From Clostridia bacterium (GTDB lineage Bacteria; Bacillota; Clostridia; Oscillospirales; CAG-272): DNA of 41,188 nucleotides. Positions 12,293 through 22,344 of this stretch are shown piece after piece. The position numbers and the translations under genes are program-made. The notes beneath the pieces were generated by a model, which saw only the letters and a program-made list of their open reading frames with translations, had not been told where the DNA came from and did no database searches. The first letter of the stretch is position 1. Every line of letters starts with the position of its first letter. The stretch lies in assembly GCA_017508465.1 (NCBI GenBank), contig JAFVYW010000153.1, positions 1 through 41,188 on the forward strand, in the 5' to 3' direction.

Positions 12293-13807
12293 ATGCACAT
12301 TTTAAAAGAAAAGTGGCGTGAAGCGCTCGCTTCCGTTCTGCCTGTAAGTGCCATCGTGCTGCTGCTCTCAATTACCATCGCGCCGATGAGCCTTTCGGTT
12401 TTTCTCTCCTTCCTCTTCGGATCGGTATTCCTCGTCTTTGGTATGGGACTTTTCTCCCTTGGCGCAGATACGGCGATGATGCCTATGGGCGAATATGTTG
12501 GCGCCTCTTTGACGAAAATGAAGAAGATTTTCCTTCTGATTCCTCTTTCCTTTTTTGTCGGCGTTCTCATTACCGTTTCCGAGCCTGATTTGCAGGTGCT
12601 TTCGCAATATGCTCCTTCAATAGACTCCACCATCCTGATCTGGTCGGTGGGTATCGGCGTCGGTGTGTTCCTTGTGCTTGCGATGCTGCGTATCCTGTTT
12701 AATATCAAGCTACGCACCCTTCTTCTCACATCCTACCTTCTCGCTTTTGGTATGGCGTTCTTTGTCAATCCGGACTTCTGGCCGATTGCCTTCGATGCAG
12801 GTGGCGTTACCACAGGACCGATGACCGTCCCCTTCATCATGGCGCTTGGTACCGGTGTCAGCGCCATCCGTTCAGATAGTGACAACGCGGCGGACAGCTT
12901 TGGTCTTGTCTCTCTTTGCTCCGTCGGACCTATCATTGCCGTTCTCTTCCTCGGACTTATCCTGGAGCCCGAAGGCGCATTCGTTCCCATCACCACGCCT
13001 GTGGTCGAGGAATCCCGTGCGCTTGCGTTGGCGTTCTTCCATGCGGTTCCGCATACGATGCTGGAAGTGCTTCGCGCCCTTCTTCCCATCACCGCCTTCT
13101 TCCTTATATATCAGCTTTTTGTCAGTCGTCTGCCCATAAAGCATCTTGGAAAAATCCTCATCGGTGTAATATACACCTTTGTCGGTCTTACCCTTTTCCT
13201 TACAGGCGCAAATGTCGGCTTCATGCCCGCAGGCTACGCCTTGGGAGAAATTCTCGGTGCGACGAGCTTCAGATATCTCATGATACCTATCGGCATGCTG
13301 ATTGGTTACTTTATCGTAGCCGCCGAGCCTGCCGTCCAGGTTCTGCAAAAGCAGGTTGAGGATATTACCTCGGGTACGATACCACGCCGTGCGCTCGGTA
13401 TCACCCTCGGTATCGGTGTTGCTATTTCTGTCGGACTTGCCATGACGCGTGTGCTGACAGGGATATCGATTATGTATTTCCTCGTCCCTGCGTATGTGAT
13501 TTCCCTTGCACTTACCTTTGTTGTTCCCGATATCTTTACATCCATCGCCTTTGATTCGGGCGGTGTTGCTTCGGGACCTATGACCGCGACATTCCTTCTC
13601 CCCTTTGCGATGGGAGCGTGTGTCAGTGTCGGTGGCACGATTGTTACCGATGCGTTCGGTGTTGTTGCGATGGTCGCGATGACGCCCTTGATTGCCATTC
13701 AGATACTCGGTCTTGTCTATAAGCTCAAGCTTCGCCATGCGCACAAGATGGCAGAAGAAAGAGAAGAGACGGTCGAGATTATCGAATTCTCCGAGGATTG
13801 GAGGTAA
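12293..13807 (+). CDS. DUF1538 membrane protein with two fused domains
   Basis: Two homologous halves: EPDLQVL...FDAGGVTTGPMTVPF and EPAVQVL...FDSGGVASGPMTATF; AGGAGG RBS. Confidence 0.9.
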   Translation: MHILKEKWREALASVLPVSAIVLLLSITIAPMSLSVFLSFLFGSVFLVFGMGLFSLGADTAMMPMGEYVGASLTKMKKIFLLIPLSFFVGVLITVSEPDLQVLSQYAPSIDSTILIWSVGIGVGVFLVLAMLRILFNIKLRTLLLTSYLLAFGMAFFVNPDFWPIAFDAGGVTTGPMTVPFIMALGTGVSAIRSDSDNAADSFGLVSLCSVGPIIAVLFLGLILEPEGAFVPITTPVVEESRALALAFFHAVPHTMLEVLRALLPITAFFLIYQLFVSRLPIKHLGKILIGVIYTFVGLTLFLTGANVGFMPAGYALGEILGATSFRYLMIPIGMLIGYFIVAAEPAVQVLQKQVEDITSGTIPRRALGITLGIGVAISVGLAMTRVLTGISIMYFLVPAYVISLALTFVVPDIFTSIAFDSGGVASGPMTATFLLPFAMGACVSVGGTIVTDAFGVVAMVAMTPLIAIQILGLVYKLKLRHAHKMAEEREETVEIIEFSEDWR

Positions 13808-17222: not shown

Positions 17223-17251
17223 TTGACAAGTGTATGTGCATGTGTTAAAAT
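17223..17251 (+). promoter_or_regulatory. Sigma-A promoter upstream of the Mrr-like gene
   Basis: TTGACA(17223-17228)-17 bp-TAAAAT(17246-17251) with an extended -10 TG. Confidence 0.75.
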
Positions 17252-17285
17252 AAAGTATGATAAAATATTTCAGAGGGGAGAGCAT

Positions 17286-18272
17286 ATGAAAAACGCAAGA
17301 GCCAAAGCCAAAAGCGCTATCATAACTTTTTTGAAAACGGTAACCAGCGCGACAAGACGCGAGGTTCTTGACGGCGCACTCTTGTCATTTGGTCTGTCAA
17401 AAGAAGAGCTTGAAGGAAAAAATCAAGGTGGCCGATACGGTACAGCGCGCTCCTATCTTGGTGCGACGCTCTCTGAACTTGTCCGCGTGGGTGATGTCGG
17501 CAGAGGTGGCAGAGGCTATCTGTTAGGAAAAGAAGAAGCCGTTGTGATTCGCGAGGACGAAACCGAGCGCAAGCTCCGTGTCTCTTTGAAAAGTCGCGCC
17601 CTCACTAAAAATGAGCTTGTTCGTCATCTGGAAAATATCTTTGGCACAAGAGAGACGAGAACGCGTGAGGACGACAGACTTCTTTATACCATTACAGATA
17701 CCATTCTCTCGCGCCTTGTGGCAGAGGGTGAGGTGAAGATGGAAGGAAATCGTTATGTTCTTTGCCCGAAGCCTGTCTGTCAGAATTGTCCCAAGGAATT
17801 GGACGAATTCAAGCTTGCCTTCTTTGACCTCCTTGCTGCGCGTGGTGGTCCTGCGTTTGAGAGATATGTGGCAGGCTTGCTCGAAAAGTATTATCTCATG
17901 ACAGGCAAAGAGGTGCTTTTTTCCGAAACGCTCGGAGGCAGTGACGATGGCGGGATCGATGTCCGCATTGATGTTGTCGACTCATTTGGCTTTGTCGACC
18001 ACATATTAGCGCAAGTCAAGTGTCGCAGAAAAATGCATGTGACCGAAAAAGAGGTCCGCGAATTCTATGGCGCGCTTTGCGCAAGAGGCGGTAGCCGCGG
18101 TATGTATATCACAACCTCCACCTTCCATATCGGTGCGCAGAATTTTCTCGACTCTCTCGATAATGTAGTAGGTGTTGATGGCGAAAAGCTCTTTTCTATC
18201 GCGATGCAGACACTCTATGGCATTCGTAAAAGCAAAGCAGGGTATACCTTCGACACCACAGTATTTGACTAA
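17286..18272 (+). CDS. Mrr-family (type IV-like) restriction endonuclease with two putative N-terminal winged-helix domains
   Basis: FERYVAGLL, SDDGGIDV, AQVKC, VREFYGAL, GMYITTSTF and VDGEKL match Mrr_cat; start moved to the ATG at 17286 after AGGGGAG. Confidence 0.85.
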   Translation: MKNARAKAKSAIITFLKTVTSATRREVLDGALLSFGLSKEELEGKNQGGRYGTARSYLGATLSELVRVGDVGRGGRGYLLGKEEAVVIREDETERKLRVSLKSRALTKNELVRHLENIFGTRETRTREDDRLLYTITDTILSRLVAEGEVKMEGNRYVLCPKPVCQNCPKELDEFKLAFFDLLAARGGPAFERYVAGLLEKYYLMTGKEVLFSETLGGSDDGGIDVRIDVVDSFGFVDHILAQVKCRRKMHVTEKEVREFYGALCARGGSRGMYITTSTFHIGAQNFLDSLDNVVGVDGEKLFSIAMQTLYGIRKSKAGYTFDTTVFD

Positions 18273-18304
18273 AATGTAAGTAATTGTTTACAAGGAGATG
18301 TAAA

Positions 18305-19855
18305 ATGAGGATAAAAATTCTTGCAGGCGAACATTGGTGGGGCTTCAACAGCATTCATGCGCCAATGCAACCGTTTGATGAAAATACAAAATATCAAGGT
18401 CACCTTTTCCTCGATGGTGGTAACCAATCCGCGCCTCTTCTCGTTTCCGACAAGGGCAGATATGTTTATGCGGAAAATGCATATATTCTTCACATGGAAG
18501 ACGGCTTTCTTTCTTTAGAGGGTGGCGAGGAGCCCGTCCTTTTTGAAGGCGGTAAAAATCTTCGCGATGCCTACCTGGCACTCTCGCGGAATTTCTTTGA
18601 CCGTACAGGAGCAGTACCACCTCTGAAGTTTTTTGAGACGGCACAGTATAACACCTGGATGGAGTTTACCTACAATCCTACACAGGAGAGCGTTCTTGCC
18701 TACGCGAAAAGCATTGTAGAAAGTGGTTATACCCCCGGCATTCTTATCATCGACGAAGGCTGGCATACAAGATACGGACTTTGGGAATTTGACCTGGCGA
18801 AATTCCCAGACCCCAAGGGTATGATAGACGAATTGCATTCTATGGGATTCACCGTCATGCTTTGGGTAGTTCCTATCGTTACGGCAGACGGACGCGGCTA
18901 TCTTGGCATAGATGGTGGCGCCTCTTATCTGAAACCAAAATGGGAGGAAAATCCTTTGCTCAAAACGGATGAGGGCAAGGTCGCTCTCGTACGATGGTGG
19001 AATGGTTATAGCGCGATCCTGAACTTCTGTTTACCCTCGGCAAAGGAATACCTCGGCGAAAAATTACGCTTTCTGATGGAAGAATATGGCGTTGACGGCT
19101 TTAAGTTCGACGGTGGTAGCCTGGATATGTATCGTGCGGATAATGTTCAGAATGGTACACAGAGCAGATACTCGGCAATAGAACTCAACAAGGCATGGAA
19201 CGAATTTGGCGAACAATTTGCGTTTCATGAATATAAAGACACCTATGACAGAGGTGGTAAATCGGTCATTCAGCGTATCCGCGATCGCGCTCACCGTTGG
19301 GATGGGGATGGGCTTTGTAGCCTGATTCCTTTTGCTCTTGTTGAAGGACTGATGGGATACACCTTCCTTTGCCCCGATATGATTGGTGGCGGAGAGTGGT
19401 CCTATACGGAAATGGGCATTCCGTGGGACGAAGAGCTTGTTGTCAGAATGGCAGAATGCTCCGCACTCTTCCCGATGATGCAGTTTTCGCTTGCCCCCTG
19501 GCGCATTCTCTCTGACGAGAACGCGCGCCTCTGCCTGGATCAGGCAAGGCTTCACGATGCCTTCGCGCCTCGTATTATTGAGGAAGTGAAGAAGAGCGCA
19601 CAGACAGGCGAGCCTATCCTTCGCCCCTTGGAATACAATTTCCCTGGAGCAGGATATGAATGCACTACCGATATGTTTATGTTCGGCGAGGACATCCTTG
19701 TAGCTCCCGTTCTTGAACAGGGCGTAAACACCAGAACCCTCACTCTCCCCTGTGGCAAATGGCTCTACCGTGGCGAAACCGAGTATACGGGTGGTACGGA
19801 AGTCACCGTTCCTGCGCCCCTCGGCACTTTGCCATATTTTGAGAAAGTTCAATAA
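18305..19855 (+). CDS. Glycoside hydrolase family 31 (MYORG/NET37-like branch; alpha-glycosidase)
   Basis: QYNTW, IIDEGW, KFPDPK.MID.LH..GF.VMLW, nucleophile GFKFDGG, acid/base PDMIGGG, PMMQFS and ILVAPV; ATG at 18305 after AAGGAG. Confidence 0.92.
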   Translation: MRIKILAGEHWWGFNSIHAPMQPFDENTKYQGHLFLDGGNQSAPLLVSDKGRYVYAENAYILHMEDGFLSLEGGEEPVLFEGGKNLRDAYLALSRNFFDRTGAVPPLKFFETAQYNTWMEFTYNPTQESVLAYAKSIVESGYTPGILIIDEGWHTRYGLWEFDLAKFPDPKGMIDELHSMGFTVMLWVVPIVTADGRGYLGIDGGASYLKPKWEENPLLKTDEGKVALVRWWNGYSAILNFCLPSAKEYLGEKLRFLMEEYGVDGFKFDGGSLDMYRADNVQNGTQSRYSAIELNKAWNEFGEQFAFHEYKDTYDRGGKSVIQRIRDRAHRWDGDGLCSLIPFALVEGLMGYTFLCPDMIGGGEWSYTEMGIPWDEELVVRMAECSALFPMMQFSLAPWRILSDENARLCLDQARLHDAFAPRIIEEVKKSAQTGEPILRPLEYNFPGAGYECTTDMFMFGEDILVAPVLEQGVNTRTLTLPCGKWLYRGETEYTGGTEVTVPAPLGTLPYFEKVQ

Positions 19856-19889
19856 TAAATGCAGTATTTCTGAACAATACTTTTCCTAT

Positions 19890-20031
19890 CAAGGCGGAGC
19901 CTTGTATATCATCTGTTCTGAAAGAACAGTATATCATCCGCAACTTGTTGCGGTATATCATCAATGCGGAGCATTGTATATCATCTGTTCTAAAAGAACA
20001 GTATATCATCAGTCCAAAGGACTGTATGCAT
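19890..20031. repeat. Array of six short hairpins separated by a constant TATATCAT linker
   Basis: Linkers at 19905, 19930, 19954, 19977 and 20002, with degenerate TATGCAT at 20025; each intervening 15-17 nt is a perfect stem-loop. Confidence 0.9.
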
Positions 20032-20172
20032 CCGCTGGGTTTTCGCCTACGGCGAATATACGCACACCCTGCGCCTGACAAGCGAGCTTGTCGATCTACG
20101 GGTGGCGTATGCGAACCAGTTCTCGCTTCGCTACGCTTGCGAGAAGCAGGTCCGAGACCGCTTCTCCGACAA
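20032..20172. other. Highly structured element ending in an inverted, degenerate copy of the tRNA-Tyr 3' end
   Basis: Nested stems (TTCGCC/GGCGAA, GACAAG/CTTGTC, CACCC/GGGTG, TTCTCGC/GCGAGAA); 20146-20172 on the plus strand resembles the tRNA T-arm and acceptor 3' strand. Confidence 0.6.
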
Positions 20173-20208
20173 AAAAAGAGACCCGACTAAAGTCAGGTCT
20201 CTTTTTTT
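20171..20208. terminator. Terminator immediately downstream of tRNA-Tyr (bidirectional shape)
   Basis: AAAAAAAGAGACC...GGTCTCTTTTTTT. Confidence 0.85.
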
Positions 20209-20292
20209 GGTGGGGGAAGCTGGATTCGGACCAGCGAAGTCAGTGACAACAGATTTACAGTCTGCCCCCTTTGGCCGCTCGGGAATTCCCCC
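20208..20292 (-). tRNA. tRNA-Tyr (GTA), 85 nt, long variable arm, encoded CCA
   Basis: Reverse complement GGGGGAATTCCCGAGCGGCCAAAGGGGGCAGACTGTAAATCTGTTGTCACTGACTTCGCTGGTCCGAATCCAGCTTCCCCCACCA folds as a cloverleaf with anticodon loop CTGTAAA. Confidence 0.97.
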
Positions 20293-20310
20293 ATTCACAA
20301 GTGCCTATAT

Positions 20311-20339
20311 AGTATAGCATATATTTTTTGATTTGTCAA
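20311..20339 (-). promoter_or_regulatory. tRNA promoter
   Basis: TTGACA(20339-20334)-17 bp-TATACT(20316-20311) with an AT-rich upstream tract. Confidence 0.8.
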
Positions 20340-20493
20340 ATGTTTTTTTCAAAAATATATAAAAAATTTTAAAAAAACAAAAAAGAGGATATTATGCTCG
20401 CCTTTTTCACTAAAAAACAAGAGAAGCCCTGCACCCAAAGACGAGCGCAAGGCTTCTGAATTGAACTCTGTGTGAGTTAATTGTGGTTTTGAA

Positions 20494-22344
20494 TTAGTCT
20501 TTTGTTTCTTCCGTAGGAACATCCTCTGCGGGAGCTTCTTCAACAGGAGCATCCTCTGCGGGAACTTCTTCAGCAGGAGCTTCTTCAGCAGGAGCATCCT
20601 CTGCGGGAACTTCTTCAGCAGGAGCTTCTTCAGCAGGAGCATCCTCTGCGGGAACTTCCTCTGCGGGAGCCTCCACAACTGCGTCTGCTTCAGGAGCAAT
20701 GCCAGCAACTAGAGCACGACGTGCTTCAAGGTCAGTCGTGATGGTTTCAAGGGTTTTCTTGTCTACATTATAAACAAAGGTGAGACCGATAAACATAAGG
20801 ATTGCACTGAACAGGTAGAGACCCGCAACAAGCCAGCACATATTCTTTGCGGTGGTGGGATCCTGACCGATTGTGCCAAGTTTTTCGTCGTAACCGAGCC
20901 ATCCCATAATGAGAATAACGGCCGCAGGACCGACACCTTGAGCGAGTTTTCTAAAGAAGGAGTGAATTGAGTAAACAACGCCTTCCTCACGTGTGCCGTA
21001 TTTCCATTCGTTGTAGTCGATAGCGTCACCCATCATAGCCCAGGATACGCAGGTGTAAACACCCATACCGACACCGAAGAACACAAGACCTACAATGTAA
21101 ACGATAAGACCGAGGTTTGCGTCGGGAATCATCGGGAAAACCATCATAATGAGAGCACCAAGAAGTGCGCCAGCGTTACCGACAACCGACGCTTCCTTCT
21201 TGCCCCATTTTTCAACAATCTTCTTGATGAAGGGAATGAAAATGAACATAGGAAGGAAACCGATAATCATAACTACGCCAGAAAGCGATGCCTTACCAAA
21301 GTAGGTAGCAAACATAATAGTGTTTGCGGTAGTCGCAGACTGCATTCCGAGGAACATACCCATAGCGGCGATGGTAGCGCCGACTGCAGGACGATTCGCT
21401 ATGAACTTACCGAAGGACTTGAAAATGTTGACCTTTTCTGTCTGCTCGTTTGTCTTTACTGTATTCTCATCTACACGGATGGTGATCTTTTTGATCATAA
21501 ACAGAAAGGCAATGAAGCCAAGCACACCCATAATCAATGCAGCGATAAATACACGCTCTCCAAGAAGAATTTCAACATCGCTACCAGTCGAGGGGTTAAG
21601 AACCTGATCACCGGGGGCATAAGGTTCACCTGTGAGGGGGTTTTTCATAAAGTCGTCAGCCTTGAAGCCGTCGGGAACGATAATCTTGTCGAGGAAACTC
21701 GTCGTACCATCGAACTTAACCTTTTGCCAGATAAGCATAGGAAGAATGATACCAGGAAGCATGTTGCCGAACATCGAGCCGATGGAACGCCAGGTAGAAA
21801 GTTCTGCCTGTTCACGCTTATCCTCGGTGACGAGGGGGAGCATCGAACCGTAAGGAACATTTGCGATGGTATAGCAAGCGTCCCAAATGACATAAGCGAG
21901 AACGAATACGGTCGACTTCAAAACAGAAGCGAACCATGCCTCACTCATACGGATAGATGTGGGCAAGGGAAGGAATACAAGTGCGCCAGCAACAAGCAGA
22001 CCGACAGCGCCAATCAGAATATAGGTTTTGAATTTACCCATCTTGTATTTGCGTTTGTCGTTGTCAATCATTGTGCCGAGCATGGGGTCGTTGATTGCGT
22101 CCCAAATTTGTGTGATAAGCACGAGAACAGAGAGAATCGTAGGGTTAAGCATCATGTAAACAAGCCAGAAGGTCTGTACCGTGCTTTTGAGTGCGAAACT
22201 CATGTTACAACCGAAGTCACCAGCGGCATAAGCGAGTTTATCTGCTATACCGAAAGGCTTGGTTTTGTCATTGGCGAACGAGGTAAAGAAACTTCTGACT
22301 TTACCAAAGAAACCGCCCTGACGGGTGTTTTGTGTGTTAGACAT
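20494..22344 (-). CDS. GPH-family (MelB/UidB-like) glycoside:cation symporter with a loop insertion and acidic repeat tail
   Basis: AYAAGDFGCN, WDAINDPMLG, GKFK.YIL, YTIANVPYGS, GDAIDYNEWKYG.REEG and FRKLAQG. Confidence 0.92.
   Translation of the reverse strand: MSNTQNTRQGGFFGKVRSFFTSFANDKTKPFGIADKLAYAAGDFGCNMSFALKSTVQTFWLVYMMLNPTILSVLVLITQIWDAINDPMLGTMIDNDKRKYKMGKFKTYILIGAVGLLVAGALVFLPLPTSIRMSEAWFASVLKSTVFVLAYVIWDACYTIANVPYGSMLPLVTEDKREQAELSTWRSIGSMFGNMLPGIILPMLIWQKVKFDGTTSFLDKIIVPDGFKADDFMKNPLTGEPYAPGDQVLNPSTGSDVEILLGERVFIAALIMGVLGFIAFLFMIKKITIRVDENTVKTNEQTEKVNIFKSFGKFIANRPAVGATIAAMGMFLGMQSATTANTIMFATYFGKASLSGVVMIIGFLPMFIFIPFIKKIVEKWGKKEASVVGNAGALLGALIMMVFPMIPDANLGLIVYIVGLVFFGVGMGVYTCVSWAMMGDAIDYNEWKYGTREEGVVYSIHSFFRKLAQGVGPAAVILIMGWLGYDEKLGTIGQDPTTAKNMCWLVAGLYLFSAILMFIGLTFVYNVDKKTLETITTDLEARRALVAGIAPEADAVVEAPAEEVPAEDAPAEEAPAEEVPAEDAPAEEAPAEEVPAEDAPVEEAPAEDVPTEETKD
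20506..20672 (-). repeat. Coding tandem repeat: 15-bp units in a 45-bp higher-order period, (A/V)PAE(E/D)n
   Basis: Repeated CTTCTTCAGCAGGAG and CATCCTCTGCGGGAA units; encodes APAEEVPAEDAPAEE repeats. Confidence 0.92.

Follow-up and report, generated by a model that had tools for sequence, protein, structure and literature searches.

The nearest described relative of the locus analysed here is Gut-1 (RF01706), whose Rfam consensus consists of three variable hairpins on a UGAAAU linker. The motif is known only from uncultured gut bacteria, and Weinberg et al. (2010), in the part of their paper used here, rated it 'RNA: Y', that is a probable non-coding RNA, from human gut samples (PMC2864571). 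Our literature search found no paper on Gut-1 biology; the motif is named only in the discovery paper and in a 2026 structure-prediction benchmark, and it has been an orphan since 2010. Very small DNA hairpins provide a second point of comparison. According to the sections of the two sources drawn on here, a d(GNA) loop closed by a C:G pair is about 2-3 kcal/mol more stable than one closed by G:C (PMC3201870), RNA versions of DNA mini-hairpins are considerably less stable, and the DNA mini-hairpins mark single-stranded DNA priming sites and phage N4 promoters (both PMC13037366).

The window (the whole stretch of DNA that was analysed, 41,188 nucleotides) carries an array that can be set beside both. 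It shares with Gut-1 the same architecture, namely tandem small hairpins with variable stems on a short constant linker, and matches to Gut-1 occur in the array's own genome. Below we describe its anatomy, the strand on which its pairing is maintained, its relatives and its position behind a tRNA gene.

Results

Anatomy of the array

A first-pass annotation of the window had reported six hairpins on a constant linker. Reading the + strand, we found exactly this at 19890-20031, which is made up of six perfect 6-7 bp hairpins and five exact GTATATCATC linkers, with stems, linkers and loops as the annotation had given them. The features of the array are as follows.

19890-20031, + strand: the whole array, with six mini-hairpins of 15-17 nt, five TATATCAT linkers and a closing degenerate TATGCAT
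19890-19904, + strand: hairpin H1, CAAGGC-GGA-GCCTTG (sequence)
19913-19929, + strand: hairpin H2, CTGTTCT-GAA-AGAACAG (sequence)
19938-19953, + strand: hairpin H3, CCGCAA-CTTG-TTGCGG (sequence)
19962-19976, + strand: hairpin H4, CAATGC-GGA-GCATTG (sequence)
19985-20001, + strand: hairpin H5, CTGTTCT-AAA-AGAACAG (sequence)
20010-20024, + strand: hairpin H6, CAGTCC-AAA-GGACTG (sequence)
19905-19912, 19930-19937, 19954-19961, 19977-19984 and 20002-20009, + strand: TATATCAT linkers between the hairpins (sequence)
20025-20031, + strand: degenerate TATGCAT closing the array (sequence)
19888-19938, + strand: first copy of an internal tandem duplication, hairpins 1-2 with linkers (BLAST, alignment)
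19960-20010, + strand: second copy in the same duplication, hairpins 4-5 and their linkers (BLAST, alignment)

The repeat unit is a mini-hairpin of 15-17 nt plus a constant linker of 8-10 nt, and every stem pairs perfectly, begins with C and ends with G. With up to one mismatch allowed, the 10-mer GTATATCATC occurred five times in the window, each time inside the array, the chance expectation at this tolerance being 2.28 matches over the entire 41 kb. Folding 19880-20040 with DNA parameters gave z = -8.1 (+ strand) and -7.8 (- strand), none of 200 shuffles being as stable, and RNA folding of 19880-20215 gave z = -8.5 and -9.0 for the two strands.

Two relations among the hairpins that the annotation had pointed out are both seen in the sequence: one double change (G:C to T:A) separates H1 from H4, and H2 is identical to H5 outside the loop. 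Because units 1-2 and 4-5 arose by tandem duplication (a 51-nt match with 94% identity), each of these pairs consists of paralogous copies and not of independent hairpins. This two-unit duplication shows that arrays change by unit copying. The sequence of H3 recurs exactly in nine other loci.

On the - strand of the array, the linker TGATATAC(T) resembles an extended -10 promoter element and UGAUGA resembles box C; we treated both as chance features of an AT-rich linker.

Relation to Gut-1

At the Rfam gathering threshold there was no match in the window. The same whole-window scan also returned nothing for the tRNA-Tyr gene described below, which E-value mode (19700-20400) scored at 49.6 bits with a cut-off of 29, so that a blank gathering-mode scan is no proof of absence. 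In E-value mode, of the matches to the array only Gut-1 on the - strand also came up at a second locus. Weak C/D-box snoRNA rows, which stem from the box-C-like UGAUGA in the antisense linker, and Plastid-rpoB rows were rejected as chance matches to the UGAUGA-like linker and one stem.

In the cmscan alignment, three units of the window array were laid on the three model hairpins of Gut-1, with 16.6 bits (E = 0.5-2, - strand), which is below the gathering cut-off of 50. The linker of the array reads UGAUAUA on the strand of the Gut-1 model and UAUAUCA on the structural strand, and the Gut-1 consensus UGAAAU is not matched; UGAAAUA in Gut-1 and UGAUAUA in the antisense array differ by a single base. 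Across the host genome (the genome to which the window belongs) the model found 25 matches, the top scores of the other arrays being 51.5, 49.7 and 48.4 bits, so that the best lies just above the cut-off. Arrays with an intermediate ATATCAC/ATATCGC linker scored 34-42 bits.

The annotation had been unable to assign the array to a named family. That statement no longer holds, since the architecture is that of Gut-1, Gut-1 is present in the same genome and intermediates bridge the two at 34-42 bits. The comparison with Rfam that it had proposed did uncover the Gut-1 architecture; the window array itself stayed below the cut-off. With only 16.6 bits, the window array is therefore a sister class of Gut-1 and not a formal member, that is, a new linker variant of the Gut-1 kind.

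The array family in the host genome and its relatives

The host assembly comprises 155 contigs and is 58% complete. Of the 43 chains listed in it, we count about 40 as true arrays; these fall into at least four linker classes, are without exception intergenic and have no fixed orientation to neighbouring genes, both directions being seen. Of 164 segments bounded by linkers, 81 were hairpins, compared with 0-2 for three control motifs. The classes are TATATCAT (five arrays), ATATCAC/ATATCGC, ATTTCAT, and TATGGAAT with its complement ATTCCATA, the last of which sits behind tRNA-Met. Downstream of tRNA-Met on contig C94 (~13400-13650), a sense arm has TATGGCAT/TATGGAAT as its linkers, and the arm that converges on it has ATTCCATAC. 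A CCGCAA-type hairpin, as in the window array, is found again in this convergent arm, which indicates that hairpin modules are common to different linker classes.

Many arrays and many tRNA genes of the host assembly lie at contig ends, and metagenome contigs break inside the window array. The summed depth of metagenome contigs was high over 19918-19991 and 20066-20102, which reflects many look-alike copies in the communities. Repeats of this kind fragment metagenome assemblies at tRNA loci, and this matters for genome completeness and tRNA counts. Elsewhere in the host genome, on contigs C61 (~261), C134 (~2386) and C90 (~35854), we noted a repeated promoter-plus-leader cassette with a TTGAAA-type -35 and a TATGATATAAT-type -10 followed by AAACTCACCGATAAATAAGAAT; the C134 copy precedes a methyltransferase-like ORF.

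A ATATCATC-N12-20-GTATATCATC pattern was found in 22 of 61 related genomes and its reversed control in none, with the qualification that loci in relatives were chosen by the exact-linker pattern and that related genomes are not independent. The two-linker pattern of the TATATCAT class was present in 17 of 36 genomes of the same genus and in 4 of 24 from other families of the order, and a triple ATTTCAT pattern in 21 of the 61. The carriers are uncultured Clostridia from animal and human guts. The array family is dispersed, intergenic and order-wide. The annotation had predicted a dispersed, multi-copy intergenic family with covarying stems, and the host arrays, the 22 carrier genomes and the covariation described next bear this out.

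Stems are maintained by pairing on one strand

We assembled a unit set from 60 regions of relatives, the loci found by pattern search and four host contigs. Among its 185 distinct units, 143 have perfect stems and 117 distinct hairpin sequences occur, the linker alone being constant. The covariation set started from the 48 units with exactly 16 nt between linkers; four whose hairpin was already present and one duplicate of a window unit were excluded, and the 43 units kept were joined by two window units to give 45. Across these 45 distinct, equal-length units, 96.7% of cells were paired, compared with 65% in shuffles, and 77 cells had changed on both sides, compared with 21.6 in shuffles; none of 500 shuffles reached either value. 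Slid controls were 28-35% paired. The stems are maintained by pairing, not by sequence, and the selection on structure over sequence that the annotation had read from a single modular element is recovered here across the family.

Only for the strand reading TATATCAT is the pairing maintained. On this strand, internal wobbles were G.T in 24 cases and A.C in 3 (p = 5e-5), or 20 and 3 when counted by distinct hairpin sequence. Triloops outnumbered tetraloops (107 versus 54). GNA made up 65 of the 107 triloops, and 63 of these 65 were closed by C:G, which makes the C(GNA)G loops remarked on in the annotation diagnostic; GNRA and CUUG loops occurred 14 times each. The sense hairpin was the more stable in 43 cases and the antisense hairpin in 6 with DNA parameters, and in 41 versus 8 with RNA parameters. 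Both parameter sets favour the sense strand, and the energy models therefore do not discriminate between DNA and RNA.

The same polarity was found in the ATTTCAT class, where GNA and TNC triloops stood at 31:1 and tandem sheared G.A pairs at 14:0, and in the ATATCRC class, where G.T wobbles stood at 5:0. The wobble test was neutral in the Gut-1 class proper (5 versus 4); the polarity strand there is the complement of the Rfam model. From the polarity of the TATATCAT class, the structural ('sense') strand of the window array is the + strand. The fact that pairing is kept on the TATATCAT strand alone indicates that the element acts when that strand is unpaired.

Arrays stand behind tRNA genes

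At 32 of 69 distinct loci in relatives, a tRNA or tmRNA gene lies within 450 nt of the array. The array was downstream of the tRNA in 58 of 60 array-tRNA pairs, and arrays in relatives stand just downstream of tRNA terminators. In compact composites the proximal arm is sense and lies 51-86 nt from the tRNA, and the distal arm is antisense and lies at 123-155 nt; arm pairs in relatives were convergent in 26 cases and divergent in one. The linkers of convergent pairs are complementary, and in one composite the outer linkers pair in both the MFE and the centroid structures predicted for it.

Terminators flank the arrays moderately often, 41 of 95 upstream and 35 of 95 downstream compared with 117 of 690 background windows, and since they are enriched on both sides, the terminator test yields no direction. 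The sense strand of the arrays agreed with the local gene-strand majority in 3 cases and opposed it in 9, which is not significant in this small sample, and no link to replication direction was seen for the 12 arrays with gene-strand majority as proxy.

Around the window array we located the following features.

18284-19855, + strand: GH31-family glycoside hydrolase gene, 523 aa (ORF; Pfam PF01055, PF21365)
20038-20117, + strand: repeated module of ~80 nt, predicted three-way junction (BLAST, consensus fold)
20121-20169, + strand: two GC-rich hairpins from module to terminator (MFE structures)
20170-20209, both strands: bidirectional intrinsic terminator, A7, 12-bp stem, T7 (sequence, self-complementary match, folds)
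20208-20292, - strand: tRNA-Tyr (GTA) (ARAGORN; Rfam tRNA, 49.6 bits)
20311-20339, - strand: promoter-like site of tRNA-Tyr, TTGACA, 17 nt, TATACT, with TG before the second hexamer

Counted from the tRNA, the order is tRNA-Tyr, terminator and, at 199 nt, an antisense array arm. The window locus has this antisense distal arm only, and the ~80-nt module stands at the near-arm position; tRNA-Tyr is the probable anchor of the entire composite at 19856-20207. The terminator, which is common to the GH31 transcript (+) and tRNA-Tyr (-), was not listed by a simple terminator scan (its stem and tail fall outside the rule), and its reading rests on sequence.

The first hairpin begins 35 nt after the GH31 stop codon. 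In two relatives, the GH31 orthologues (66% and 64% identity) are followed by a plain terminator and no array, and the array is not conserved together with the GH31 gene. The search for an empty site that the annotation had suggested was fruitless: none was found among close relatives, and these nearest orthologues have diverged too far for an insertion to be delimited. Immediately before the GH31 gene, at 17223-18272, we noted a 349-aa ORF with an Mrr_cat restriction-endonuclease domain. On the other side, tandem 15/30/45-nt repeats (~11 copies of the 15-mer) occupy 20506-20674 at the 3' end of an MFS_2 transporter gene (20494-22344, - strand) and, judged by eye, encode an Ala/Pro/Glu-rich repeated C-terminal tail.

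The ~80-nt module recurs in host contigs C101 (two tandem copies) and C102, and C90 holds a shorter match of 47 nt with 79% identity. Its consensus fold includes two compensatory pairs across three copies, and its strand signals are mixed, with U.G pairs on the + strand and a GNA-type loop on the - strand. One DNA-run contig (X1; a single contig, depth 5) joins 20174 back to 20034. Such a join would mean that a strain variant carries the module twice in tandem, in agreement with the two tandem copies in C101. Contigs C44, C90, C100 and C107 carry structured modules behind tRNA terminators with a common GGTTCGCATAC motif that is tRNA T-arm-like, and the same motif is found in the window's ~80-nt module on the - strand.

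Candidate partner proteins

The annotation had raised a mechanism of the REP/RAYT type and proposed to look for a flanking partner. No Y1 transposase (PF01797) was found in the host genome (58% complete) or in the array-rich relatives G003 and G025; the family is present in relatives G014, G049 and G058. There is also no conserved head of the GTAG type, and the stems are not conserved in sequence, so that the REP-like reading is right in spirit, as a dispersed and structure-selected repeat, but is not supported as to mechanism. The partner search gave a divided result: an HUH transposase was not found in the 58% complete host genome, and a different gene recurs beside the arrays of relatives. 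This gene, PF05635, encodes an Avd-like four-helix-bundle protein that is related to the accessory protein found with diversity-generating retroelements. It lies within ~500 nt of 10 of the 69 TATATCAT-class loci in relatives, and hairpin arrays, with yet other linkers, were present at 11 of the best 30 PF05635 loci. Neither the window nor the 58% complete host genome yielded PF05635 with the Pfam model, a protein query or a purpose-built profile.

Discussion

We propose, with a probability of roughly 45%, that the array forms one arm of a modular DNA repeat, non-coding and non-autonomous, that stands behind tRNA genes in uncultured gut and rumen Clostridia and is a sister class of Gut-1. We lean towards DNA rather than RNA as the single strand in action, because the preferred C(GNA)G loops are those of a very stable DNA mini-hairpin that is much weaker as RNA. 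Such a strand would most likely arise by extrusion from a supercoiled duplex, or when replication or transcription opens the DNA near heavily used tRNA genes. In canonical composites terminators are often seen beside the arrays, identical linkers may provide the homology for duplication, loss and shuffling of units, and the linkers of convergent pairs are predicted to pair mutually into a branched, ladder-like fold. The window copy would then be the distal arm, enlarged by its internal duplication, of a tRNA-Tyr composite whose proximal arm was replaced by a different repeated module. It is also located in the 3' tail that the GH31 transcript carries before the common terminator.

That the array works as RNA is an alternative which we consider rather doubtful. 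It would be transcribed here as the 3' tail of the GH31 mRNA, and elsewhere by read-through from tRNA genes or as a small RNA of the Gut-1 type. It could serve as a 3' exonuclease barrier, as a processing substrate whose AU-rich linkers are cut, or as a multi-site sponge that takes up a protein with affinity for the single-stranded UAUAUCAU linker. The window copy does lie between the GH31 stop codon and the only good terminator, array-like sequence is contained in RNA-library contigs, and Gut-1 itself was rated 'RNA: Y' in the consulted part of Weinberg et al. 2010 (PMC2864571). The 24:3 excess of G.U over A.C points the same way, tolerance of G.U being a classical RNA signature, as do the occurrence of the RNA-stable GNRA and CUUG loops, 14 of each, and the 41 versus 8 preference for the sense strand with Turner parameters. 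However, the public runs gave contigs, which hold no strand or end information, and not transcripts. Triloops (107) prevail over tetraloops (54), and C(GNA)G, the loop that the family prefers, has little stability in RNA form according to the portion of PMC13037366 used here. The polarity falls on the strand complementary to the Rfam Gut-1 model, the arrays keep no fixed orientation to neighbouring genes, and a single linker-binding protein would leave several linker classes per genome unexplained.

There are two further explanations. The linker might be an iteron-like site for a protein on double-stranded DNA, repeated every 23-25 bp with the palindromes as spacers, and bound by the Avd-like four-helix-bundle protein or by gyrase as at BIME elements. 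Regular spacing and identical linkers within an array would fit, as would the PF05635 genes near 10 of 69 loci and the arrays at 11 of the best 30 PF05635 loci, and the position between convergent transcription units resembles that of BIME elements. But spacers that are always palindromic and a wobble and loop polarity on one strand are unexplained by duplex binding, the linkers vary between arrays of one genome, and PF05635 was not found by three methods in the host genome (58% complete); we regard this explanation as improbable. Still less probable, in our judgement, is a neutral by-product of slippage at the linkers and templated quasi-palindrome correction, with neither a selected function nor dedicated machinery. 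The internal duplication, the lack of a fixed orientation to genes and the failure to find a partner enzyme are what such a process would leave behind. If hairpins were corrected from their other arm, however, either strand would be restored equally, and neither the 24:3 wobble bias nor the bias of 65 to few for GNA loops would be predicted. The same hairpin types also recur across genera and families, as with H3 in its nine other loci, and the arrays are placed strictly on the downstream side of tRNA genes (58 of 60 pairs).

Returning to the tRNA-linked DNA repeat, we also entertain a broader form of it, which we think unlikely. Gut-1 and its sister classes might together form one superfamily of strand-specific arrays of single-stranded DNA mini-hairpins behind tRNA genes, read or maintained by the Avd-like protein, and not small RNAs, with linkers homogenised per array and hairpin modules common across linker classes and genera. 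If true, this would define a novel type of element that works at the DNA level, and Rfam would have modelled Gut-1 on the wrong strand.

The Gut-1 motif appears as one class of a much larger, tRNA-tied repeat family whose carriers, Clostridia of gut and rumen, are abundant. Folding in this family takes place on one defined strand, opposite to the catalogued Gut-1 strand, and its loops are of the stable DNA-hairpin type. New here are the polarity of the strands, the loops of DNA type and the anatomy of an orphan distal arm.

Comparison with known systems

A CRISPR array has constant repeats of at least 23 nt and unique, non-palindromic spacers. We rejected this reading, since here only 8-10 nt are constant and each variable part, 15-17 nt long, is a perfect palindrome. 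Readings as a CRISPR-like array, an iteron array or a type III antitoxin were likewise set aside, as the variable parts are palindromic and no cognate gene adjoins.

REP, BIME and REPIN elements are short extragenic palindromes that occur many times per genome, between genes and near terminators, in mosaics and inverted pairs and with presumed folding of single-stranded DNA. The host arrays resemble them in all of this, being multi-copy extragenic palindromes within one genome. In REP elements, however, it is the stem sequence that is conserved, together with a 5' tetranucleotide read by the RAYT, whereas here the linker is constant and the stems vary; the arrays are moreover anchored at tRNA genes, and no Y1 (RAYT) transposase was found in the host genome. 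Integron attC sites are also recognised by structure, folded from one specific DNA strand and set in arrays. They measure 57-141 nt, have gene cassettes between them and are used by the IntI recombinase, in contrast to the units here, which measure 23-25 nt and have nothing between them.

The d(GCGNAGC) mini-hairpins are close in another respect, as the C:G-closed C(GNA)G loop on one specific strand dominates the array family; the cases presented in the part of PMC13037366 drawn on here are single hairpins in origins and promoters, not arrays on constant linkers. Gut-1 remains the closest system. Its consensus has three variable hairpins, whereas the window array has six units with far more varied stems, and the loops and wobbles of the family point to the strand complementary to that of the Rfam model. 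Gut-1 entered the literature as a stand-alone non-coding RNA; what we find here is a dispersed, tRNA-flanking repeat with several linker classes.
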